Part shown: positions 1,716 through 59,681 of the stretch, piece after piece
Numbering within the stretch: position 1 is the stretch's first letter
Layout of the letters: each line of letters starts with the position of its first letter
DNA from: Candidatus Uhrbacteria bacterium
GTDB taxonomy: Bacteria; Patescibacteriota; Patescibacteriia; GWA2-47-26
Direction of reading: 5' to 3'
NCBI GenBank assembly: GCA_016187515.1
Contig: JACPJN010000008.1
Coordinates: 4,525 to 68,524 of the forward strand
DNA: 64,000 nt
Translations under genes and position numbers: made by a program
The notes under the pieces: generated by a model
Told to the model about the DNA's origin: nothing
Seen by the model: only the letters and a program-made list of their open reading frames with translations
The model's database searches: none

Positions 1716-2318
1716 ATGGCCAAAAAAATAAGACCATCCGCGCCGGTGGAGGTTAGCTTACTGCCGGATGATCCGGGTCGGAGAGCGGATCACGGGCGTA
1801 AAAGTTTGGCGTACATACTTTGGCTGGTACTGCTCGCTCTTGTGGCGGGGCTCACGGTAACCGCCGGGTATTTTCGATTCTCCGCGAATAAGATGAGCGA
1901 TAAAAGCGCGGTATTGCTCCGGCAGCTGCGGGATCTGGACCGGCAGATTGGTGAAGCGGAGCGGAAGGTTGGTCCGGTGAAGGATATTGGCCGACGTATT
2001 GGGTTGGCCAAAAGCGCGCTGGCCCAGCACCTTAGCGGTTTTCCATTACTGGAAGCGCTTCAGGCGACCGCGATTCCCGAGGTGGTCGTTAAGCAAATCA
2101 ACGCGGATGCCAAAGGTACGGTAGTGCTCTCCGGCCGCGGTAAGACCGTCAGTACGGTAATTCGGCAAATTTTGGCCTGGAATGGCCACCCGGCGGTTCA
2201 AGATGTGAAAATTTCCGGAATTTCCAATATTCTAAATAACGTGGGAGAGCTGGAAGGGGTGGAGTTCACCGCGACACTGATTTTTGATTCCGCATTATTT
2301 ACAAGCGGTCTAAAATAG
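1716..2318 (+). CDS. pilN: PilN-like pilus assembly protein; start reassigned to the ATG at 1716
   Basis: Single N-terminal TM helix (LAYILWLVLLALVAGLTVTAGYF) followed by a coiled-coil region. Position after pilM. The ORF-track start at 1605 overlaps pilM in another frame. Confidence 0.55.
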   Translation: MAKKIRPSAPVEVSLLPDDPGRRADHGRKSLAYILWLVLLALVAGLTVTAGYFRFSANKMSDKSAVLLRQLRDLDRQIGEAERKVGPVKDIGRRIGLAKSALAQHLSGFPLLEALQATAIPEVVVKQINADAKGTVVLSGRGKTVSTVIRQILAWNGHPAVQDVKISGISNILNNVGELEGVEFTATLIFDSALFTSGLK

Positions 2319-2323
2319 CGGGT

Positions 2324-2998
2324 ATGTCAGTTTCATTTTTTTCACGCGTCAGCGCGCTTATCCCGGGGATTTTGGCGGTACTGGTTGGAACCATCGGATT
2401 CAGCGTTTTATTGCGGCCGGGCCTGGATCGTTTTCAGGAGATTCGCGCGGAGCTTAATGGGCGGCAGCGCGATTATCAGGACGCCCGGACGCGTTTTGGC
2501 GAATTAAGTGAAATTGAAAACCGGTTAAAAGCAATCAGCCCGGATGAGCTTAAAAAACTAAAAGCATTTTTCGTGGAAGCGCCGGAAGTTGCGCATCTGC
2601 TTAACGCTTTGGCGGATCGGGCGGCCGCGGCGGGTTTTTTTATCGGATCGCTGGAGGTCGGACGGGCACGGGAGACGGAAATAACGGGCCCGCTTACGGA
2701 TGTCAGCATTCAAGTGCAATTAAAAGGCGGAGGATATCGCGAGCTTAAGCAATTGCTTTATCTGCTCTCTAAAACCGTGCCGCTTCTGGATTTTACCTCT
2801 TTTGCTTTTCAACCCCAAAACGCGCTAGTCAGTTTGAATCTCAAAGCCCGGGCGGTCGTGAAAGCCGATACTCCGAGCGCGGTTCCGCTGGATGTGAGTT
2901 TTTTCACTGATCCGAATTTTCAGGCGCTTTCCGCTCCGGTGGATCTGCCGGCGCTCGAGGCGGTTGGCCGAGAAAATCCGTTCGCGCCCTTAGAGTGA
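2324..2998 (+). CDS. pilO: PilO-like pilus assembly protein
   Basis: N-terminal TM helix plus coiled coil. Gene order pilM-N-O. Confidence 0.5.
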   Translation: MSVSFFSRVSALIPGILAVLVGTIGFSVLLRPGLDRFQEIRAELNGRQRDYQDARTRFGELSEIENRLKAISPDELKKLKAFFVEAPEVAHLLNALADRAAAAGFFIGSLEVGRARETEITGPLTDVSIQVQLKGGGYRELKQLLYLLSKTVPLLDFTSFAFQPQNALVSLNLKARAVVKADTPSAVPLDVSFFTDPNFQALSAPVDLPALEAVGRENPFAPLE

Positions 2999-3059: not shown

Positions 3060-4802
3060 ATGCAATCGTTGGTACAGGTACAAAACGAATTTCTGAAATT
3101 TTTGGTTAGCCAGGGCCTCCTCTCTAATGAAAGCGCCCGGGAGGTTGAGCAGCACGCGAGCGCCGAAGGGGTTGCGGCTGATCAGCTGCTGGTCCGCGAG
3201 AAAATTATTTCCGAGGAGGAATTAACCAAGCGGAAGGCCGTTTTTTTCGGTATTCCGTACGCTGATCTAACCGGCCAGCGCGTTGATCCGCGAGTCCTAA
3301 AGATTATCCCCAAGCATGTCGCGGAGAACTATCACGTCGTCGCTTTCGGAAGGGATGCCGGCGAACTTAAAGTGGCAATTGCAGACCCGCGTAATTTTCA
3401 AGCGATGGCCGCGCTTGATGTGCTGGCCTCCAAGGTGAACCTGCGCTTGCGGTATTATGCCGCGTCACCCTCTAGTTTTGATTCCGCGTTTAAGGGCTAC
3501 GCGGAACTCAAAGGCGAAGTGGAGGAAGCCGCGGAAGTCGCCCGAAAAGAGCTGGAACCGACCGGCAAAAAGGACGCCGCGCCGGTAGCGGAGGTGATTA
3601 AAGGAGCGCCGGTTTCCCGCATCGTATCCGTTATTATGCGGCATGCCTATGAAGGGCACGCTTCCGATATTCACATCGAACTTCATCAAGGAACCTCGCG
3701 CGTGCGCTATCGGATTGACGGAGTATTGCGGACTACCCTGACCTTGCCGGAGGCGCTTCACTCTTCCATCATCGCGCGCGTTAAAGTGCTCGCCAATTTA
3801 AAACTCGACGAAACGCGGGTTCCCCAAGACGGCCGGATTACCGAGACGATTGGAGATAGACCCATTGATTTCCGCGTCTCCACTTTGCCGCTCCAGGAGG
3901 GGGTGGAAAAAGTAGTGCTCCGGATTCTTTCCACCGAAAGCGCGCCAACGCTGGCCGATCTCGGATTCAATGCCGAGCATATAAAAATTATTGAGAGTAA
4001 TATAAAAAAGCCGCACGGCCTGATCCTGATTTCCGGTCCAACCGGCGCGGGTAAGTCCACCACCCTGTACGCGATATTGACTTTGCTCAATCGCGAAGGG
4101 ATTAATATCGTGACCCTGGAAGACCCGATCGAATACTTCATTGAAGGGATTAATCAGTCGCAGATTCGTCCGGAGGTTGGCTATACTTTCGCCACCGGGC
4201 TGCGTTCAATCTTGCGCCAAGACCCCAATGTGATTATGGTCGGGGAGATTCGCGACGGAGAAACTGCCGAACTTGGCGTGCATGCCGGACTAACCGGACA
4301 CCTGCTGCTGACAACCATTCATACCAATGACGTGCTGGGCGTTATCCCGCGGCTTATTGATCTGAAAGTCGAACCGTTTTTGCTGGCCGCGACATTTATG
4401 CTGGGTATTGCCCAGCGCCTGGCCCGGAAGATCTGTCCGGATTGCAAGGAAACCGCGAAAATCCCCGATAGTTTGGCGGCCGCCATGCGGGACGAGCTGA
4501 AGAAAATTCCGAAGCGTTATCTTACGGACAATATCAATAGCGGCGCGCCCTTGACATTTTATCGCGGCCGGGGATGCCCAAAGTGTGGTACAATGGGTTA
4601 TCGGGGACGCGTGGCCGTCTCGGAAGTCCTGCAGGTAACGCCCGCCTTGTCGCAGCTAATCGCGGACGGTTTTAAAATGGGCGATGAAGTAACCCGCGAA
4701 TTATCCGCGCAAGAAATGATTAGCATGAAACAAGACGCCCTGCTAAAAGCGCTTCAAGGACTGACCACGATTGAGGAAGTTCTGCGCGTGAGTAAAGAAT
4801 GA
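3060..4802 (+). CDS. pilB: type IV pilus assembly ATPase PilB (GspE family)
   Basis: Walker A ISGPTGAGKSTTLYA, GspE signature region, and C-terminal zinc knuckle CPDCK...CPKCG. Confidence 0.9.
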   Translation: MQSLVQVQNEFLKFLVSQGLLSNESAREVEQHASAEGVAADQLLVREKIISEEELTKRKAVFFGIPYADLTGQRVDPRVLKIIPKHVAENYHVVAFGRDAGELKVAIADPRNFQAMAALDVLASKVNLRLRYYAASPSSFDSAFKGYAELKGEVEEAAEVARKELEPTGKKDAAPVAEVIKGAPVSRIVSVIMRHAYEGHASDIHIELHQGTSRVRYRIDGVLRTTLTLPEALHSSIIARVKVLANLKLDETRVPQDGRITETIGDRPIDFRVSTLPLQEGVEKVVLRILSTESAPTLADLGFNAEHIKIIESNIKKPHGLILISGPTGAGKSTTLYAILTLLNREGINIVTLEDPIEYFIEGINQSQIRPEVGYTFATGLRSILRQDPNVIMVGEIRDGETAELGVHAGLTGHLLLTTIHTNDVLGVIPRLIDLKVEPFLLAATFMLGIAQRLARKICPDCKETAKIPDSLAAAMRDELKKIPKRYLTDNINSGAPLTFYRGRGCPKCGTMGYRGRVAVSEVLQVTPALSQLIADGFKMGDEVTRELSAQEMISMKQDALLKALQGLTTIEEVLRVSKE

Positions 4803-6435: not shown

Positions 6436-6532
6436 TGGTATACTAGTCCTATGTGGATAAGTGACCCCGATCGCGATCGGGGTCATCCTGAGGAGTCCCG
6501 ACCAAGTCGGGACGACGAAGGATCTCGCGCCT
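6436..6532 (+). promoter_or_regulatory. putative pilin promoter (extended -10 TGgTATACT at 6436-6444) and structured 5' UTR with two perfect hairpins (6463-6484 GACCCCGATCGCGATCGGGGTC; 6495-6513 GTCCCGACCAAGTCGGGAC)
   Basis: Read directly from the sequence. Sits between the pilC stop and the pilin ATG at 6533. Confidence 0.35.
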
Positions 6533-23262: not shown

Positions 23263-23420
23263 AGACCCCCTCTCACTCCCCCTTGAAAAGGGGTAGAAAA
23301 CGGCGGGACCCCCTCTAACTCCCCCTCGGAGAGGGGGAGAAGCGATCCGATTTCCTCCCCTTACCAAGGGGAGGTTAGGAGGGGTCTAACCGAGAGGGGG
23401 AGATCAGGAGGGGGTGGGAG
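23263..23420. repeat. two adjacent copies of the family-2 GC-rich palindromic element (GACCCCCTCTCACTCCCCCTTGAAAAGGGG.. / ..CCTCTAACTCCCCCTCGGAGAGGGGGAG..TTTCCTCCCCTTACCAAGGGGAGGTTAGGAGGGGTC)
   Basis: Intergenic, between the PGI stop and the cyclase gene. Same family as 50733-50810 and 58918-59000. Confidence 0.65.
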
Positions 23421-28752: not shown

Positions 28753-28806
28753 TTACTGCTCAAAGAGGGTTTACTTCAATGCTAAAAAGTGGTAGGATGG
28801 GGGAAT

Positions 28807-29855: not shown

Positions 29856-29910
29856 TTTTTTGTTTTTCAAGGGTTTACTTCAATGCTAAAAGGTGGTAGA
29901 GTGGGGGAAT

Positions 29911-38359: not shown

Positions 38360-38385
38360 GTGTGTAGTGAATTTAACCCCGCACA

Positions 38386-38557
38386 CTCATCCTTACAAAC
38401 TCCAGTATTTAAGGATGAAAGTGGTCATACAGATTTTTGCACTGGATAGAGGGCCTTGCGCCGGATTCCGTGGCCTGCCCCCACACCAATTTTAGAAATA
38501 TTGGTGTGGGGGCAGGCCGCGAGGCATTTGTGCTTATATATTTTTTCCGTGGATGAT
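38386..38557 (+). repeat. R2 element copy 1 (~170 nt: CCTTAAAT..ATTTAAGG hairpin, then a 20-bp perfect stem GCCTGCCCCCACACCAAT-TTTAGAAAT-ATTGGTGTGGGGGCAGGC, then a T-run)
   Basis: Direct repeat of 39769-39939 (~90% identical). A partial third copy of its first arm at 38703-38740, followed by a partial S element at 38744-38790. Confidence 0.6.
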
Positions 38558-38915
38558 CATGTGAAATCTCTCCCACCCCCTCTAACTCCCCCTCGGGCAG
38601 GGGGAGAAATTTTATTGGGCAGGAGGGGAAAGTGATAACCGAATACTCGCCAAAAGATTTTAAAAATTTTTAATCCCACACCCCAAACTCCCAACCCCAA
38701 ACCATCCTTAAATTCTCAAGTATTTAAGGATAAAAAATCTCCATTCTGCGATTCCCTCCTACGGCGGACAGGCGCGCGAATCGCAGAATGCCGCAGTGGA
38801 CAGGCACACGTTAAGCGGGGTAGGCAGGAATCCAAAACGCGTCACCATTGGCGCGTTTGTGCATATACTTGACATTTTCCTTCATTTATGAAACAATGTC
38901 TTCAGGAGGAAAACA

Positions 38916-49401: not shown

Positions 49402-50085
49402 ATGTCAAATTTCTATATTGTTGCCACTCCCATCGGCAATCTTGAGGATATTACCTTGCGGGCGCTTCGCGTGCTTAAGGAAGTGGATTTTATCATTTGT
49501 GAAGACACGCGGGTAACCAGCAAATTACTGGCGCGTTATGAGATAAAAAAGCCGCTGGTCAGTTATTTTCAGCATAGTCAACTCTCGCGCGTGGATGAAA
49601 TTATCGCCCGGCTTCGCCGGGGTGAAAATGCGGCGCTGGTTACCGATGCCGGAACGCCGGGAATTTCTGATCCGGGCGGCGTACTCATCAGGCAAATTAA
49701 CCAATTAACTAATCAACTAATTAACATCGTTCCCATTCCCGGTCCCTCGGCATTGACGGCGGCGCTTTCCATCTCCGGTTTTCCCACGGACAAATTTTTA
49801 TTCCTGGGTTTTCCGCCGCATAAAAAAGGACGGCAGAAGTTTTGGCAGCGCGTGGCAGAGAGTGAGGAAACCACAGTATTCTACGAATCCCCGCATCGCA
49901 TCTTGAAGTCGCTCAATGAACTCAAAAATAACTTAATAACTCAATCACATAATAACCCGATCGTCGTCTGCCGCGAACTGACCAAGATGTTTGAATCCAT
50001 ATATCGTGGTACAATGGAAGAAGTGCTTGAAAAAGCACAGCGCGATCCGATAAAAGGGGAATATGTCGTTGTGATAGGTAAGTAG
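49402..50085 (+). CDS. rsmI: 16S rRNA (cytidine1402-2'-O)-methyltransferase RsmI
   Basis: MSNFYIVATPIGNLEDITLRALRVLKEVDFIICEDTR tetrapyrrole-methylase-fold N-terminus. Small low-complexity insertion INQLTNQLIN encoded by AATTAAC-type repeats. Confidence 0.8.
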   Translation: MSNFYIVATPIGNLEDITLRALRVLKEVDFIICEDTRVTSKLLARYEIKKPLVSYFQHSQLSRVDEIIARLRRGENAALVTDAGTPGISDPGGVLIRQINQLTNQLINIVPIPGPSALTAALSISGFPTDKFLFLGFPPHKKGRQKFWQRVAESEETTVFYESPHRILKSLNELKNNLITQSHNNPIVVCRELTKMFESIYRGTMEEVLEKAQRDPIKGEYVVVIGK

Positions 50086-50094
50086 CAAATGAAA

Positions 50095-50515
50095 AAGCCG
50101 AGCAGGCGCCTGCTCGGCCCGGAGTTGGAGCGCTGTCGGTCGGGGGTACCAACCAACAGTCCCATGGATGCTCCGTCTCCTTAGGGACGTGTTTCGCCCG
50201 CGCGTCGTCATGGGGGCGACGGCCGCGCGTAACGCCACACGAACCCTATCGGAACAAGAGGGCCCGCAACTCGTACTGCGCCGGACGCCGTGGTGATGGC
50301 GAGGGGAGCGCGATCCACAGCGCCTCGGCAGCTAACGAGTTTTGGGCCCAAGGTAGAGGGCTGGTACTCCACCGGTTCAGGGTCGCCGGGGGTGGTTGGC
50401 GGCCTAGGGTACCGGCAGAGTACCAAGCCCGGCAGGAGATGGTGGTATCGCTCCACCGCATGTGGGATAGAATACCCACATTCTGCGTAACAGTCCCCTG
50501 AAAGTACTATACACA
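50095..50515 (-). ncRNA. candidate structured ncRNA (~400 nt, ~60% GC) ending in a minus-strand rho-independent terminator (GCCGAGCAGGCGCCTGCTCGGC + TTTTTC at 50091-50122); identity undetermined
   Basis: Long GC-rich non-coding gap between rsmI and metG in an otherwise tightly packed region. Perfect 9-bp-stem hairpin followed by a T-run on the minus strand. No conserved RNase P / tmRNA / SRP / T-box motifs recognised by eye. Confidence 0.3.
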
Positions 50516-50524
50516 CTAAATCAT

Positions 50525-52240
50525 ATGCTCAAAAAGTTGTCAAGTACAGGCAAGAAATTCTATATCACAACTCCAATTTACTACGTCAACGACGTGCCGC
50601 ATATTGGGCATGCGTATACGACGATTGCGGCGGATGTGTTGGCGCGGTATTATCGGGCGCGCGGCGAGCCGGTGCGTTTTTTGTGCGGCACGGATGAGAA
50701 CGCGCAGAAGAATGTGGAGGCGGCGTTGCGACACACCCCCTCTAACTCCCCCTCGGAAAGGGGGAGAAAACAATTTCCTCCCCTTTTGAAGGGGAGGTTA
50801 GGAGGGGTCCGTGAAGTTGTCCAGCAGTACGTTGATGAAATGTCGGCGAAGTGGCAGCGCACGTGGGACGAGCTCCAGATTTCCAATGACGATTTTATCC
50901 GCACTACCGAGCCGCGGCATGTAAAATATGTGGAGAAATTTTGGGGCCTGGTAAAAAAGGGCGATATTTATAAAGGCCAGTACGAGGGTCTGTATTGTAC
51001 CGGTTGTGAAGCGTACAAAACCGAAACCGAACTTGTAAAAGGCAAGTGCCCGGATCATAATCGCGCGCCGGAAAAATTAAGCGAGGAAAATTATTTTTTC
51101 AAACTTTCCGCGTATCGCAAAAAATTGTTAGCGCATATTAAAAAGCATCCCGAATTTATTCAGCCCGAAGCGCGGCGCAATGAAGTAACGGCGTATATTC
51201 GCGACCACACGGCGGATTTCAGCATTTCGCGAAAAAATTTGGAGTGGGGGATTCCGGTTCCGGGCGATCCGTCGCAGACGATCTATGTCTGGTTTGACGC
51301 GCTGCTCAACTACATTAGTGCAGTAACTCCCTCACCCCCTCCTCAATCCTCCCCCATCAAGGGGGAGGAAGAAAAAGGAAGTTCCCCTCCCCTTGTGGGA
51401 GGGGTTAGGGGAGGGGTCAATGGTGAGGGGTGGTGGCCGGCGGATTTGCATCTGGTTGGCAAAGACATAATCAAATTTCACTGCGCCTACTGGCCGGCCA
51501 TGCTAATGTCAGCCGGACTTCCGCTTCCACGAACAATTTTTGCGCATGGATTTTTCACCGTGGATGGCCAGAAAATGAGCAAAACCATCGGCAATGTTGT
51601 TGATCCGGTGGCAATGGCGAAAAAATATGGTAATGACGTTTTGCGTTATTATTTAATGCGTGAAATTCCGTTTGGCGGAGATGGAGATTTTTCCGAAGCG
51701 CGTTTACGGGAGCGCTACAATGGCGAGCTGGCCAACGGGCTTGGAAATTTGGTGGCGCGAGTATTGACGATGGTGGAGAAGTACAGTGAAGGTGTGGTTC
51801 ATAACCCCTCCCAACCTCCCCTTACCTTAAGGGGAAGAGACGATCGCGTACCCCCTCTTAAGGTAAGAGGGGGCGAGGGGGAGTTATGGCAACAATACGA
51901 ATCCCACATGGCACAATATCAGCTTGACCGCGCGCTAGACACGGTGTGGAAATTTATTAGCGCACTGGACGCTTTGATTGATCAGGAACAGCCGTGGAAA
52001 TTGGCAAAACATGACAAAGAGCGCCTTAATATGGTATTATATACTTTAGCCGAGAATTTACGTCACATCGCTTGGATGCTCCTGCCTTTTATGCCGGAGA
52101 CCGCGGGAAAGATCTTTGAACAACTTGGTGTGCCACGCGAGACCTCCGAACGCACGTATGAACAGGCAAAAGAATGGGGCGGCCTCAAATCCGGCACAAA
52201 AATCGAGCGAGGAGATTCCTTATTTCCACGATTAATATAA
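50525..52240 (+). CDS. metG: methionyl-tRNA synthetase with three in-frame palindromic element insertions (50733-50810, 51323-51432, 51800-51888)
   Basis: HIGH motif (VPHIGHAYT), KMSKS (KMSKTIGN), zinc knuckle CTGCEAYKTETELVKGKCPDH. Insertions encode TPSNSPSERGRKQFPPLLKGRLGGV, a Pro/Gly-rich 35-aa segment, and HNPSQPPLTLRGRDDRVPPLKVRGGEGEL. Confidence 0.9.
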   Translation: MLKKLSSTGKKFYITTPIYYVNDVPHIGHAYTTIAADVLARYYRARGEPVRFLCGTDENAQKNVEAALRHTPSNSPSERGRKQFPPLLKGRLGGVREVVQQYVDEMSAKWQRTWDELQISNDDFIRTTEPRHVKYVEKFWGLVKKGDIYKGQYEGLYCTGCEAYKTETELVKGKCPDHNRAPEKLSEENYFFKLSAYRKKLLAHIKKHPEFIQPEARRNEVTAYIRDHTADFSISRKNLEWGIPVPGDPSQTIYVWFDALLNYISAVTPSPPPQSSPIKGEEEKGSSPPLVGGVRGGVNGEGWWPADLHLVGKDIIKFHCAYWPAMLMSAGLPLPRTIFAHGFFTVDGQKMSKTIGNVVDPVAMAKKYGNDVLRYYLMREIPFGGDGDFSEARLRERYNGELANGLGNLVARVLTMVEKYSEGVVHNPSQPPLTLRGRDDRVPPLKVRGGEGELWQQYESHMAQYQLDRALDTVWKFISALDALIDQEQPWKLAKHDKERLNMVLYTLAENLRHIAWMLLPFMPETAGKIFEQLGVPRETSERTYEQAKEWGGLKSGTKIERGDSLFPRLI

Positions 52241-52857: not shown

Positions 52858-53805
52858 ATGTTAATTGATTATCACGCCCATGTAAATTTTGGCGCATTTA
52901 AGGATGATGCGGAGGCGGTGATCAAACGCGCGCTTGACAGCGGCGTTTTTATGATTTTAGTGGGCACGCAGATTGACACGTCGCGGCGCGCGGTGGAGAT
53001 GGCGTCTATGCACAAAACAGGCGTGTGGGCGTCGGTGGGATTGCATCCGATACATTTAGAAAAAACCGAGCGCGATGAGGAAGAGAGTCATTTTATTTCA
53101 CGCGCCGAGGTGTTTGATCCGGCTGCCTACCGCGCGTTGGCACAGCACGAAAAAGTTGCCGCAATAGGGGAGTGTGGCCTTGATTATTGGCACATTGTAG
53201 ATGCGCAGACCCCTCCTATCCTCCCCTTGGCAAGGGGAGGAAAAATTTCTCCCCCTCTTGGAGGGGGAGTGAGAGTGGGTCCGGAGTGGGTTCAGGAAGT
53301 CAAAGCGCGTCAGCACCGAACATTTCGCCAGCATCTTGATTTAGCCGACGAGCTGGATTTACCGCTAATTTTGCATTGCCGGGGGAGCGTGGGTGATCCA
53401 GAAGATGCCTACCGCGACATGCTGGTGATTTTGCGCGAGTACGTGGAAGGCGGAAAAATAAAACGGCGCGGCTCTATCCATTGTTTTGTGTCCACTTGGG
53501 ACATCGCGCAAGATTTTCTGGGCCTGGGATTTCATATTGGATTTACCGGTGTAATTACATTTGTAAAAAGTGGCGTTGGCCCGTATGATGAGGTGGTACG
53601 CAATGTGCCACTTGAGCGCATTCTGGTGGAAACCGATTGTCCGTATCTTGCGCCAGTCCCGATGCGGGGAAAGCGCAATGAGCCGCTCTACGTCCGCTAT
53701 GTGGCGGAAAAAGTGGCGGAGATCAAGGGGATGAATCGGATGGATGTGAAAAAGCAGTTGTTCGAGAATACGTTAAGAGTGTTCTATAAAATTTCCTCCC
53801 CTTAA
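52858..53805 (+). CDS. tatD: TatD-family metal-dependent hydrolase/DNase with an in-frame element insertion (53208-53282); its stop codon lies inside a terminal element (53793-)
   Basis: N-terminal IDYHAHVNF, LHCR and ETDCPYL motifs. Insertion encodes TPPILPLARGGKISPPLGGGVRVGPEW. Confidence 0.75.
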   Translation: MLIDYHAHVNFGAFKDDAEAVIKRALDSGVFMILVGTQIDTSRRAVEMASMHKTGVWASVGLHPIHLEKTERDEEESHFISRAEVFDPAAYRALAQHEKVAAIGECGLDYWHIVDAQTPPILPLARGGKISPPLGGGVRVGPEWVQEVKARQHRTFRQHLDLADELDLPLILHCRGSVGDPEDAYRDMLVILREYVEGGKIKRRGSIHCFVSTWDIAQDFLGLGFHIGFTGVITFVKSGVGPYDEVVRNVPLERILVETDCPYLAPVPMRGKRNEPLYVRYVAEKVAEIKGMNRMDVKKQLFENTLRVFYKISSP

Positions 53806-53910
53806 GATAAGGGGAGGTCAGGAGGCGTTATGAAAAGTTCATAACTCACCCCAGCCCTCTCTTATCTTTCCGCCCGAGGCGGATCCGCCTCGGGCGGAAA
53901 GAGAGGGGGA
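53793..53910. repeat. cluster of palindromic elements (family 1: TTCCTCCCCTTAAGATAAGGGGAGG..GTTATG / CATAACTCACCCCAGCCCTCTCTTATCTT, plus GGSASGG-type CCGCCCGAGGCGGATCCGCCTCGGGCGG)
   Basis: Read directly from the sequence. Provides the tatD stop codon. Confidence 0.6.
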
Positions 53911-54008
53911 TTGATAAAAAAAAGCCGCCGGATCCGGAGGGGGGCGCTGCGCGGATTGACTCACGCGCATCCGAATCCGACGGCGGGGTGTAGAAGGAGC
54001 GGGGCGGG

Positions 54009-54407
54009 CTATTTGGCGGACGGGTCCGCGGGCGGCGACGCCTCCGGGTGTTCGATGCCCTCGATGATGTCGAGGAAGAGTTCGCACTGGACAAGCGCCG
54101 CTTTGCTCATTCGGAGATGCTCTGCGAGTTGTTCTGCATTCGGCCTCCGGATACAAAATTCGATTTCGATGCCGACTTGAGTGTGCAAGAGTTGCGCCAT
54201 TGCATTGTAAAATGCCGGAGCATCACAACTCTCTTTCCACTCGGCATTGACCCTTCGCATCGCCGCGATGGCCCGCCGGCAGACCGTAGGTGAGAGACCG
54301 GTGAGTTGCTCGCCGAGTACTTGTATTTGTTTTTGTTTCATTGCCATTGCTGACATCCTCCTTTGTGGTATTGACAGTTGTGGTAGGTGCTGAATATAGG
54401 GTAACAT
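54009..54407 (-). CDS. hypothetical protein on the opposite strand in a GC-rich segment
   Basis: Only long ORF in the 53.9-54.4 kb GC-rich gap. No motif recognised. Start ambiguous (several in-frame Met). Confidence 0.3.
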   Translation of the reverse strand: MLPYIQHLPQLSIPQRRMSAMAMKQKQIQVLGEQLTGLSPTVCRRAIAAMRRVNAEWKESCDAPAFYNAMAQLLHTQVGIEIEFCIRRPNAEQLAEHLRMSKAALVQCELFLDIIEGIEHPEASPPADPSAK

Positions 54408-54419
54408 AGAACATAAGCT

Positions 54420-55238
54420 ATGTCAAGTGTATCCGTCATTATCCCGTGCTACAATGCCGAGCGCACGATTGAGCGGTGCTTGGAGTCAATTTTCGCGCAG
54501 ACGTATCGGAATGTTCACATTGTCATTGTGAATGATGGTTCTACGGATGCCACACTTTCAGTAGTGCACGATACGATTTCACGATTGCGCAATCGTGAAA
54601 TGCGTATCGAGGTGGTGTCGCAGGAAAATCGAGGGGCTAACGCGGCGAGAAATAGGGGATTTGCGGAATGTGTGACACATAACCCACCCCAACCCTCCCT
54701 TACCTTAAGGGAGGGGGAATCGTCCAGGGTTCCTCCCCTTAGGGTAAGGGGAGGTGAGGAAGGGTTACGAACCGCGCACTATGCGCTCTTCTGTGATGCG
54801 GATATTGTGCTCCGCCGCGACTGCCTTGAAAAAATGGTACGCGCGCTAGAGGAACACCCCGATGTATCATATGCTTACTCTTCATTTAAATTCGGATGGA
54901 AAACATTTAAGCTCTGGCCGTTTGATGCAGAGCGCTTGCATAAAATGCCATACATCCACACGACGTCGCTCATTCGCGCGGATCACTTTCCCGGTTGGGA
55001 TGAATCCATAAAACGCCTGCAGGACTGGGACCTTTGGCTTACCATGCTTGAACAAGGACACACCGGCGTATGGATTCCCGAAGTGCTATTTCGCGTGATA
55101 AATACCAAAGGCACCATGAGCACGTGGCTGCCCTCATTTGCCTATAACATCCCCAAATGGCTGGGAATACAACCCAAGGCCGTAATGCTCTATAATGAGG
55201 CCGTGGCGCGTATAAAAGCGAAACATAACCTAAAATAG
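54420..55238 (+). CDS. family 2 glycosyltransferase with an in-frame palindromic element insertion (54678-54769)
   Basis: VSVIIPCYNAERTIERCLESIFAQTY..VIVNDGSTD GT2 N-terminus. Insertion encodes HNPPQPSLTLREGESSRVPPLRVRGGEEGLR. Confidence 0.8.
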   Translation: MSSVSVIIPCYNAERTIERCLESIFAQTYRNVHIVIVNDGSTDATLSVVHDTISRLRNREMRIEVVSQENRGANAARNRGFAECVTHNPPQPSLTLREGESSRVPPLRVRGGEEGLRTAHYALFCDADIVLRRDCLEKMVRALEEHPDVSYAYSSFKFGWKTFKLWPFDAERLHKMPYIHTTSLIRADHFPGWDESIKRLQDWDLWLTMLEQGHTGVWIPEVLFRVINTKGTMSTWLPSFAYNIPKWLGIQPKAVMLYNEAVARIKAKHNLK

Positions 55239-58088: not shown

Positions 58089-59681
58089 ATGACCAGATTG
58101 CCACAGATCACGGATATGCGATTTCGTACTCTCGTTTTGATATTTCTTCTTGCCGAGCTTGTTTCATACACGGGATATTTTTTTCCAGCAATAAATACCG
58201 CGGGATTTTTTGTGACTGTGGCGGCGGCGTTGGTGCTATCGCTTAAGCGGCTGGAGTATGGATTGTATTTTGTATTGGCGGAATTGATTTTGGGAGGGAA
58301 AAGCGGAGCGCTGTTTTCTTTTGAATATGGGGGATTTTTTCTTTCGCTGCGCATGGCATTGTTTATCGTGATCATTGCAGTATGGTTTGCTAAAATGATC
58401 GGCCGCAAAAAGCTCACGATCGTGAGCTTTTTGCGGCAGCCATCTTTAAGATGGTGGGGCATTCTAGGTATCGCTGTGCTCTGGGGAATTATAGTTGGAC
58501 TTGCGCGCGGCAATGATTTTGGCAATGTGTTCCTAGATGCGAATGGATATTTTTATGCCGCATTAATTTTGCCAGTGTGGTGGGCGCTTAAGGGTGCGAA
58601 TTACGAATCCGTTGCGAATTCACGAATCTCGAATTCGGAGATTCGCAAATCCCAGTCGAATTCGCAATTCGCACCCCTCGGTACAGTGTTTTTTGCCGCC
58701 ACCACCCTCCTCGCGCTGAAGACGCTTTTTGCGGTGTATCTTTTTACCCACGCCGGCAGTAATTTTATTGGCGCGAATTTGGCGCCGTTTTATCGGTGGA
58801 TCAGGGATACCGGAGTAGGGGAGATTACTTGGCTGCCCGGAAATTTCGCAAGAGTGTTTTTCCAGAGTCAGATTTATAATGTGATGGCGTTTTTCGCGGT
58901 GCTGGTTATTCTGATGCGCACCCCCTCTCACTCCCCCTCGGAAAGGGGGAGAAATTGGTTGCAATTTCCTCCCCTTTTCAAGGGGAGGTTCGGAGGGGTC
59001 TTGATTCTCAATACCGCCGTCATCATTGTTTCCCTTTCCCGCAGTTTTTGGGTGGGGATGATCGCGGGATTGCTCGTGGTCGCGGTGGTCTCGGGCCGTA
59101 TCGGACGGATACGGCATATCGGACGCCTGGTCGGCCTCCTTGCGGGTTCCGCGGTCGCGGCAGTACTGCTGCTTCTTGCCTTCGCCCGTTTTCCATTCCC
59201 CAAACCGGCCCCGGCGGATTTGGGAACCGCGGTCCAAAGCCGGCTGGAAGCCGGAGACGCCGGACAAAGCCGCTGGAATCTTTTGCCGGCAATGTGGAGT
59301 ACCGTTCGTGAGCATCCAATCCTTGGCAGCGGATTTGGGCGCACGGTAACGTATATCTCGAATGATCCCAGAGTTCGTGAGGTTAGCCGTACCGGAGAAT
59401 ATACAACTTACGCTTTTGAATGGGGGTGGATTGACGTGTGGGTGAAGATGGGACTGATGGGACTTATAGGTCTTATCGGTCTTATGGGACGCATAGGAAT
59501 TATGCTCTACCGTCGGGCAAAAACTGACCCTCGGGCCTTGGCTGCTCTTGCAGTTCTCGCTGTTCTTGCTTCAATCAATATATTTACCCCCTACTTAAAT
59601 CACCCCTTGGGGCTGGGCATTTTAATCCTGCTTGCCGGGATAAGTATCGCTTGTCAGGAGAAGCGCCTTATGGTATCCTGA
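58089..59681 (+). CDS. large polytopic membrane protein (possible O-antigen ligase/polymerase-like) carrying three repeat insertions
   Basis: >10 TM helices. Insertions: the 34-nt CGATCG palindrome (58404-58437, encodes KKLTIVSF), GAATTCGC-type tandem repeats (58612-58680, ANSRISNSEIRKSQSNSQF), and a family-2 element (58918-59000, PSHSPSERGRNWLQFPPLFKGRFGGV). Confidence 0.4.
   Translation: MTRLPQITDMRFRTLVLIFLLAELVSYTGYFFPAINTAGFFVTVAAALVLSLKRLEYGLYFVLAELILGGKSGALFSFEYGGFFLSLRMALFIVIIAVWFAKMIGRKKLTIVSFLRQPSLRWWGILGIAVLWGIIVGLARGNDFGNVFLDANGYFYAALILPVWWALKGANYESVANSRISNSEIRKSQSNSQFAPLGTVFFAATTLLALKTLFAVYLFTHAGSNFIGANLAPFYRWIRDTGVGEITWLPGNFARVFFQSQIYNVMAFFAVLVILMRTPSHSPSERGRNWLQFPPLFKGRFGGVLILNTAVIIVSLSRSFWVGMIAGLLVVAVVSGRIGRIRHIGRLVGLLAGSAVAAVLLLLAFARFPFPKPAPADLGTAVQSRLEAGDAGQSRWNLLPAMWSTVREHPILGSGFGRTVTYISNDPRVREVSRTGEYTTYAFEWGWIDVWVKMGLMGLIGLIGLMGRIGIMLYRRAKTDPRALAALAVLAVLASINIFTPYLNHPLGLGILILLAGISIACQEKRLMVS

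Follow-up and report, generated by a model that had tools for sequence, protein, structure and literature searches.

A candidate structured RNA gene of ~410 nt between rsmI and metG in a Candidatus Uhrbacteria bacterium

The non-coding gap of 439 nucleotides (nt) between the genes rsmI and metG of a Candidatus Uhrbacteria bacterium lies at positions 50086-50524 of a 64,000-nt stretch of contig JACPJN010000008.1 (assembly GCA_016187515.1), which we call the window. On its minus strand, positions 50092-50500 most likely constitute an independently transcribed gene for a non-coding RNA (ncRNA) of ~410 nt, predicted to be highly structured, that is confined to a narrow Uhrbacteria lineage and fits no catalogued family. 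From 5' to 3' the RNA comprises a tRNA-like cloverleaf, a CC spacer, four hairpins (H2-H5) and an intrinsic terminator (Table 1). By analogy with the small regulatory RNAs (sRNAs) sX13 and 6C, the chances are about even that this lineage-restricted ncRNA acts in trans through C-rich loops. Bacteria of the candidate phyla radiation (CPR) have tiny genomes and few recognisable regulators, and most of their lineages are without cultured representatives; to our knowledge, almost nothing is known about their regulatory RNAs. A structurally constrained 410-nt RNA outside Rfam would offer a concrete entry point to them.

Structure and conservation of the putative minus-strand RNA

Several observations support the structured minus-strand RNA suggested by the original prediction. 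First, the minus-strand fold reaches -218.9 kcal/mol, with a z-score of -8.35 against shuffles that preserve dinucleotides, so that composition is controlled; the plus-strand fold has a z-score of -4.54. Each domain alone is also more stable than its shuffles (z -2.8 to -5.8), and the minus-strand fold contains 14 G-U pairs, which on the plus strand correspond to A-C mismatches. Second, the five-domain architecture recurs in L004, the only full-length homologue (nhmmer E 1e-35), which lies at the equivalent place and in the same orientation beside an rsmI gene whose protein is 79% identical. Third, the terminator scan finds the minus-strand intrinsic terminator that had been proposed by eye: GGGCCGAGCAGGCGCCTGCTCGGCTT followed by TTTCATTT forms 11 pairs at 50120..50095, seven of them G-C, around a core that is a perfect 22-nt palindrome. 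Its plus-strand side has no T-run, so the terminator acts on minus-strand transcription only, and the same scan finds no plus-strand terminator after rsmI.

The cloverleaf is a four-way junction whose minimum free energy structure is also the centroid structure; inside its closing stem lie three hairpins, of 4 bp, of 7 bp (8-nt loop) and of 5 bp (7-nt loop). The cloverleaves of the window and L004 are almost unalignable (44% identity), with the topology kept: that of L004 (z -3.55) is closed by an 8-bp stem, GGGCAAUG/CAUUGCCC; its D-like arm is short, its anticodon-like arm long and branched and its T arm, GAGGG-UUCAAGU-CCCUC, canonical, so that the T-like stem GGUGG/CCACC of the window becomes GAGGG/CCCUC. 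The 13-bp basal helix of H2 is likewise kept in L004 through A-U to G-U and U-A to U-G replacements and one double change (94.7% of alignment cells paired); the apical region of H2 is CACCCCCG, with a C-run at 50388-50392 that neither fold pairs. In H3, the lower helix ACUCGU/ACGAGU becomes GCUUGU/ACAAGC in L004, its pairing kept by changes on both strands. H3 ends in the apical loop CUCCCCU (C-run 50303-50306) and shares the motif CCCCUCGC with L004. H4 holds the most conserved internal block, UAGGGUUCGUGUGGCGUUA, and an apical loop CCCCCA (C-run 50212-50216) closed by CGUCG/UGACG; 98% of its cells are paired in the alignment with L004, with one double change, and a covariance model of this hairpin (R1) scores 96.5 and 89.4 bits on its two members. 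The basal helices of H5 are identical in L004. Its apical loop is UACCC in the window, within the C-run at 50142-50146 (unpaired C-rich stretch ACCCCC); the apical part differs in L004 and still forms a C-rich loop, CGCCCCA.

Across the full alignment, identity between the window and L004 is 44-71% in the cloverleaf, H2 and H3 and 83% in H4 and H5. When the window structure of H2-H5 and the terminator is threaded on a MAFFT alignment of the two, 88.4% of cells pair, compared with 39-49% after the partners are displaced by 1-3 columns. In six pairs both partners change, a number reached by 8 of 500 shuffles; this covariation lends modest support, since the long form has two known members only. 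A 44-nt block at the 3' end, CAGCGCTCCAACTCCGGGCCGAGCAGGCGCCTGCTCGGCTTTTT, is 100% identical (window 50092-50135, L004 3162-3205) and covers the 3' strand of H5 and the whole terminator with its 22-nt palindrome. This is more identity than a terminator should need, and the block may be a binding site at the protein or DNA level. The element as a whole is 76% identical, compared with 75-79% for the flanking protein genes; conservation equal to that of its neighbours, together with the identical 3' 44 nt, indicates constraint.

Upstream of the cloverleaf, a possible -35 box, TTGAGC, lies 15 nt before the candidate -10 box TATAGT and overlaps the metG start codon, which sits inside the putative promoter region of the RNA gene. 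The equivalent putative promoter in L004 reads TTGACA-17-TATAAG, with the metG ATG within the spacer; this, like the -35 box of the window, was recognised by eye, and a consensus promoter scanner made no call for L004. Judged from the sequence, transcription from the putative -10 box would begin at about the first cloverleaf base in the window, and L004 would have a leader of ~14 nt.

The gap itself is GC-rich (63-68% in 200-nt windows), and the 300 nt from 50101 are the GC maximum of the 64 kb (0.673, compared with a mean of 0.504 and a standard deviation of 0.062), so that the long GC-rich non-coding gap first noted upstream of metG is real. Its description as unusually long holds in part: it is among the longest in the window and is not unique, because a crude map of open reading frames (ORFs) shows a second long gap of 556 nt at 38360-38915. 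The element is not an assembly artefact, because the identical sequence is also found on L001, a Logan contig that was assembled independently and is reported in 12 samples. Upstream of it, the RsmI protein (Pfam PF00590) is 100% identical to P0001, a protein that NCBI assigns to 'Candidatus Uhrbacteria bacterium'; downstream, the homologues of metG carry tRNA-synt_1g domains.

It is improbable that the element is non-functional, be it a decayed gene, what is left of an inserted element or a spacer whose GC-rich sequence folds by chance. GC-rich sequence generally folds stably, and the element is patchily distributed among relatives and known from two members; the composition-controlled z-score, and an architecture and 44-nt block kept while the flanking proteins are 77-79% identical, point the other way. 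None of the five ORFs of the element has a Pfam match at E≤1, and the longest, of 102 amino acids (aa), finds no match among 5.8 billion proteins. These two negative searches led us to reject a protein-coding gene or pseudogene, including the degraded pseudogene that the original prediction had named as a possible refutation. A mobile element was rejected as well: the flanks show neither target-site duplication nor terminal inverted or direct repeats, and no phage match was found.

Known RNA families and the rsmI-metG site in relatives

At gathering thresholds, a search of the whole window against Rfam 15 gives no match for the element, be it to RNase P RNA, transfer-messenger RNA (tmRNA), signal recognition particle (SRP) RNA or 6S RNA, the families for which this check had been proposed. 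At E≤10, the element alone (601 nt searched) yields only microRNA-model and ctRNA-model matches on the terminator hairpin. RNase P, SRP, 6S and 6C (RF01066) models have no match at E≤10 in either the window element or L004 (511 nt searched), and ARAGORN reports no tRNA or tmRNA in either the window or L004. The cloverleaf of L004 has its best match, a weak one, to mascRNA-menRNA (RF01684; 22 bits, E 0.049, gathering threshold 42.5), and the window copy has none; this is a resemblance of shape rather than membership, the context of that family being vertebrate long non-coding RNA. The only tmRNA match in L004 is an 18-nt T-arm fragment (9.9 bits, model positions 346-363).

A very diverged housekeeping RNA (RNase P RNA, tmRNA, SRP RNA or 6S RNA), as the original prediction envisaged, is now largely refuted, and we regard it as very improbable. 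Lengths of ~410 nt and high GC contents are common in RNase P RNA and tmRNA, the T arm of the L004 cloverleaf is of the tRNA/tmRNA type, and CPR RNase P RNAs can score below Rfam thresholds, diverged examples being reported as found by RF00010 at a threshold reduced to ~5 bits (Lui et al., PMC8172020). Even by that ~5-bit CPR criterion, however, the element has no covariance-model match to RF00010 or RF00011, and RNase P RNA was rejected. No P1 helix was found: the 5' end closes the local cloverleaf, the 3' end is the terminator, and the two ends are unpaired, leaving neither a P1 helix nor a tmRNA acceptor stem. On reading the minus-strand sequence, neither GGAAAGUCC nor ACAGAA..GGCUUA was found, the RNase P motifs of conserved regions (CR) I and V. 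The only long-range candidate for a P4-like pairing, CCGGGCUUGG/CCAACUCCGG, was rejected since it competes with the H2 and H5 helices kept in L004. The strings CCGGGCU and AUAGGGUUC appear to resemble segments of Escherichia coli M1 RNA.

tmRNA (RF00023 and permuted forms) was rejected because the closing stem joins RNA positions 25-31 and 86-92 rather than the two ends of the RNA. There is also no conserved tag frame: the sole AUG-led frame, which lies in the H4 loop, runs on without a stop nearby, and its AUG is CUG in L004. The cloverleaf has the topology of a tRNA, a closing stem of 7-8 bp and a 5-bp T-like arm with a 7-nt loop. tRNA (RF00005) was nevertheless rejected, since the D-like arm has 3-4 bp and no spacer and both the Rfam tRNA model and ARAGORN are negative; in the window the anticodon-like arm consists of 7 bp and an 8-nt loop, in L004 of a branched 8-bp stem, and the T loop is canonical in L004 only. 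tRNA genes split by a group I intron are known in CPR bacteria (PMC8172020). Such a split tRNA was rejected here: no intron match was obtained, the cloverleaf is already closed within 68-97 nt, and the element ends at its 3' side with neither T arm nor acceptor strand. Mimicry of a methionyl-tRNA synthetase substrate by the cloverleaf was rejected too, there being no CAU in the anticodon-like loops.

Relatives' loci, fetched through RsmI homologues, show a gap between rsmI and metG that varies from 0 to 488 nt (Table 1). Because the two genes abut in six close relatives, the element is not a housekeeping gene fixed at this site. In loci with gaps of intermediate length, short sRNA-like minus-strand units of ~100-170 nt combine a C6-C8 apical loop and a terminator with sigma-70-like boxes by the metG ATG (recognised by eye); Rfam searches of the short-form loci at E≤10 gave only chance hits of the microRNA or terminator type. 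A module GGCCG..C-run..UGACG recurs in H4 of the window, H2 of L004, L006 and L010. The short forms have position, orientation, layout and this motif in common with the long form, and we do not claim homology. The unit in L097 is a diverged fragment ended by the contig end, where RsmI reads through into downstream GC-rich DNA, and the RsmI homologue P0018 has a 33-aa C-terminal extension from reading into the downstream GC-rich RNA region.

Among 12 contig look-ups, L004 was the only second long form. A gapped 22-base pattern of H4 gave three chance matches, inside coding DNA, in Joint Genome Institute (JGI) metagenomes; an 18-mer of the 3' block gave two chance matches in IMG/VR; and nhmmer found no further copy in 80 loci of GTDB species representatives, retrieved through RsmI, or in the other relatives' loci.

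Table 1. Position of the RNA gene, its parts and neighbours in the window, and the rsmI-metG site in relatives (positions without a locus name refer to the window)
Feature	Position or locus	Strand	Description
rsmI	49402-50085	+	16S rRNA (cytidine1402-2'-O)-methyltransferase; flanks the RNA gene and is convergent with it
metG	50525-52240	+	methionyl-tRNA synthetase; from the ORF list; divergent from the RNA gene
Candidate -10 box TATAGT	50506-50511	-	5 nt upstream of the cloverleaf 5' end; putative, read from the sequence
Cloverleaf	50433-50500	-	tRNA-like four-way junction; 7-bp closing stem CAGGGGA/UCUCCUG; z -3.78
Spacer CC	50431-50432	-	between cloverleaf and H2
H2 hairpin	50358-50430	-	basal helix GGGCUUGGUACUCU/AGAGUACCAGCCC; z -5.32
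H3 hairpin	50260-50349	-	irregular, 90 nt; closed by GGGCCC/GGGCCC; z -5.84
H4 hairpin	50182-50248	-	z -2.79; 83% identical to L004
H5 hairpin	50121-50180	-	basal helices GGAG/CUCC and GGAGC/GCUCC; z -4.74
Intrinsic terminator	50092-50120	-	11-bp G+C-rich hairpin and U-run; terminator scans, window and L004
Gap ~0 nt	L002, L011, L012, L017, L019, L100		rsmI and metG abut (six close relatives)
Gap ~100 nt	L008/L009		
Gap 140-260 nt	L005, L006/L007, L010, L018		each with a short minus-strand gene-like unit
Gap 488 nt	L004		long form
Short unit	L006 ~2255-2440	-	
Short unit	L010 ~2630-2760	-	
Short unit	L018 ~3255-3400	-	
Short unit	L005 ~3745-3915	-	
Short unit	L097 1630-1744	-	
Palindromic repeat copy	23265-23420		
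Palindromic repeat copy	38575-38640		
Palindromic repeat copy	50735-50815		
Palindromic repeat copy	53261-53280	-	
Palindromic repeat copy	58920-58950		

Possible modes of action and repeats of the window

The predicted folds give the RNA the defining trait of C-loop sRNAs, namely C-runs left unpaired in the apical loops of stable hairpins; this applies to all four hairpins H2-H5 in the window and to three of four in L004. The C6-C8 apical loops of the short minus-strand units in relatives also speak for a C-loop sRNA. In the trans-acting C-loop reading, which we regard as the best-supported mechanism, the exposed C-runs would pair with G-rich stretches (GGGG/GGGGG) that a minority of mRNAs carry shortly before the start codon, and this pairing would block initiation or alter mRNA stability. 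The cloverleaf would be a degenerate tRNA-type module that could protect or define the 5' end; alternatively, it could offer processing sites of the RNase P/RNase Z type that free the hairpin array.

The genes of the window provide candidate targets. GGGG occurs within 25 nt upstream of 10 of the 53 genes, compared with 8.6% of background windows, and the best predicted loop-target duplexes at such genes have energies of -19 to -20.5 kcal/mol (for example 32621, 49402 (rsmI) and 23430). The 30 nt before each of the 53 ORF starts mostly lack a Shine-Dalgarno sequence, and TATAAT-like boxes lie 6-12 nt before the start (examples are the starts at 6461, 7618, 40017, 41269, 43642, 57095 and 62571); a minority have G-rich leaders. 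The rarity of Shine-Dalgarno sequences and the -10-like boxes near start codons suggest that mRNAs are mostly leaderless.

A number of points weigh against a C-loop sRNA. Complementarity between C-runs and G-runs is easily found, the target prediction is weak and covers 64 kb of genome, and G-runs also come from the dispersed palindromic repeat described below. Known C-loop sRNAs are far smaller than this RNA of 410 nt, and the C-run of H4 is lost in L004. The covariation comes from one pairwise comparison, with a threaded structure derived from one of the two sequences. The consensus promoter scanner made no call for the window promoter, which matches the consensus poorly. Further long forms numbered zero in the JGI metagenome pattern scan, the 80 GTDB loci and IMG/VR, leaving two members in total. 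Models R1 (H4) and R2 (H5 and terminator) are only at noise level on L006, L010, L018, L005 and L097, and because the long-form models miss the short forms, a C-loop sRNA family at this site rests on analogy.

The size of 410-490 nt fits a protein sponge better than a base-pairing sRNA, and the hairpin array could, in the manner of CsrB/RsmZ, titrate an RNA-binding protein that prefers C-rich loops. Four hairpins with a like apical motif in one long RNA are consistent with such a sponge, as is the recurrence of the GGCCG..C-run..UGACG module, and a weak match of the H4 model to H2 of L004 (14 bits, E 0.64) may point to internal duplication. That likeness of H2 and H4 falls short of significance, however; no candidate protein partner was identified, and apart from the C-run the loops of different hairpins, and those of the two homologues, have different sequences. 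We consider a sponge unlikely.

A role in cis is also unlikely. Here the minus-strand transcript or its promoter would tune metG, by antisense action or transcription interference in a thiI-rsmI-metG operon, and the fold would be secondary. The six loci in which rsmI and metG abut suggest an ancestral operon; no plus-strand terminator follows rsmI, so plus-strand transcripts would read through the gap; and in the window, L004, L006, L010 and L018 the putative promoter of the minus strand includes or adjoins the metG ATG. Tuning in cis would not need a conserved cloverleaf, a compensated hairpin architecture or C-rich apical loops, however, and it leaves the identical 3' block unexplained. The cis and trans roles are not mutually exclusive.

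The trans-acting C-loop reading may be extended to an undescribed class of large modular RNA in CPR bacteria (Patescibacteria), in which a degenerate tRNA-like cloverleaf, serving in processing or as a tRNA mimic, would be joined to a C-loop array that controls the few mRNAs with G-rich leaders in a genome otherwise largely leaderless. We put forward this class tentatively, its probability falling somewhat short of even. The rsmI-metG site would then count as a hot spot for the gain, expansion and loss of such sRNA genes.

Repeats and inserts occur around this locus and elsewhere in the window. A dispersed palindromic repeat with the core ACCCCCTCTAACTCCCCCTC..GGGGGAG..GGGGAGGTTAGGAGGGG has six matches at up to 3 mismatches, where 0 are expected; its copies occur both in intergenic DNA and within genes and resemble REP/MITE-like (repetitive extragenic palindromic or miniature inverted-repeat transposable) elements or in-frame palindromic elements of the Rickettsia type. 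Relative to L008 and L002, MetG has three in-frame low-complexity inserts at 50730-50815, ~51330-51440 and ~51840-51920, the first of which, HTPSNSPSERGRKQFPPLLKGRLGGV, is a copy of this repeat. The metG gene of L004 (3633-5369) carries different inserts at the same three sites, and the metG ORF of the window is open despite them (571 aa, compared with 511-537 aa). RsmI homologues P0001-P0030 also vary by short low-complexity inserts at two fixed sites (49690-49730 and 49925-49960 in the window), including QINQLTNQLIN, NNLITQSHNN and PSPGLRPPSPFGRGGGEG among others.

Farther from the RNA gene, the gap at 38360-38915 has 47% GC and combines a long perfect hairpin, GGCCTGCCCCCACACCAATATT..AATATTGGTGTGGGGGCAGGCC, with a copy of the palindromic repeat. 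The region 53806-54420 is GC-rich (62-64%) with a long palindrome, TTTCCGCCCGAGGCGGATCCGCCTCGGGCGGAAA, and seems to contain a gene on the minus strand, where genes are few; a clear Shine-Dalgarno sequence, AAGGAGG, stands before it. ORF starts at 28760-28800 and 29865-29905 have near-identical upstream and start sequence, GGGTTTACTTCAATGCTAAAA(A/G)GTGGTAG, which suggests tandem paralogous genes or a repeated promoter cassette.

Relation to known C-loop and modular RNAs

If the class of large modular RNA suggested above is real, this RNA would be among the first regulatory sRNAs defined in the CPR radiation, and if its C-loops target G-rich leaders, the chaperone-independent logic of C-loop and G-motif seen in sX13 and 6C would extend to a mostly leaderless genome. 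The locus also carries a caution for annotation: in CPR genomes, a long GC-rich gap next to the gene of an aminoacyl-tRNA synthetase need not be the RNase P RNA that seems to be missing. In length, GC content and a link to the tRNA-like shape, the element resembles RNase P RNA and tmRNA. The tRNA-like domain of tmRNA, however, is built from its 5' and 3' ends, whereas the cloverleaf here is contiguous, lies at the 5' end and comes without a tag frame. Unlike RNase P RNA, the element has neither P1/P4 helices nor the conserved-region motifs, and its site is dispensable in close relatives.

Two other systems recall parts of its design. A cloverleaf that is not a tRNA inside a longer ncRNA is also found in MALAT1 mascRNA and MEN-beta menRNA (RF01684), at whose tRNA-like element RNase P and RNase Z cut. 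Those RNAs are eukaryotic and carry the element at the 3' end, whereas here it is at the 5' end and processing is only putative. The long RNAs CsrB and RsmZ likewise have repeated hairpins that each display one short single-stranded motif; that motif is GGA, for CsrA, rather than a C-run, and there is no sequence relationship.

The trans-acting sRNAs with C-rich loops include sX13, 6C and RoxS/RsaE. In Xanthomonas, sX13 has three stems with C-rich loops and represses, with no need for Hfq, mRNAs that carry G-rich motifs at the ribosome-binding site, which occur in ~5% of genes (PMC3771888). The RNA described here resembles sX13 in its stable stem-loops with 4C/5C apical motifs, in having its own terminator as a putative stand-alone gene, and in its predicted targets, a minority of genes with G-rich motifs near the start codon. 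However, sX13 is short, has three hairpins without a tRNA-like domain and belongs to another phylum; no sequence or covariance-model similarity between the two was detected in the Rfam searches, and a shared function is a proposal.

In mycobacteria, the C-rich loops of 6C bind mRNA directly and need no chaperone (PMC6486639). C-rich apical loops are common to 6C (RF01066; B11/6C in M. tuberculosis) and the present RNA, and in 6C multiple G-C pairs suffice. 6C has two hairpins in less than 100 nt and is confined to Actinobacteria, whereas the RNA described here exceeds it in length four to five times and carries a cloverleaf at its 5' end. The loops of 6C present six or more Cs on two hairpins, compared with C4-C5 runs on four hairpins here, so the likeness is one of functional analogy only. 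C-loop sRNAs are themselves already known; by this analogy, what would be new is one that is unusually large and modular and is fused to a tRNA-like domain, an unusual design in which a tRNA-shaped module is joined to a multi-hairpin C-loop array.

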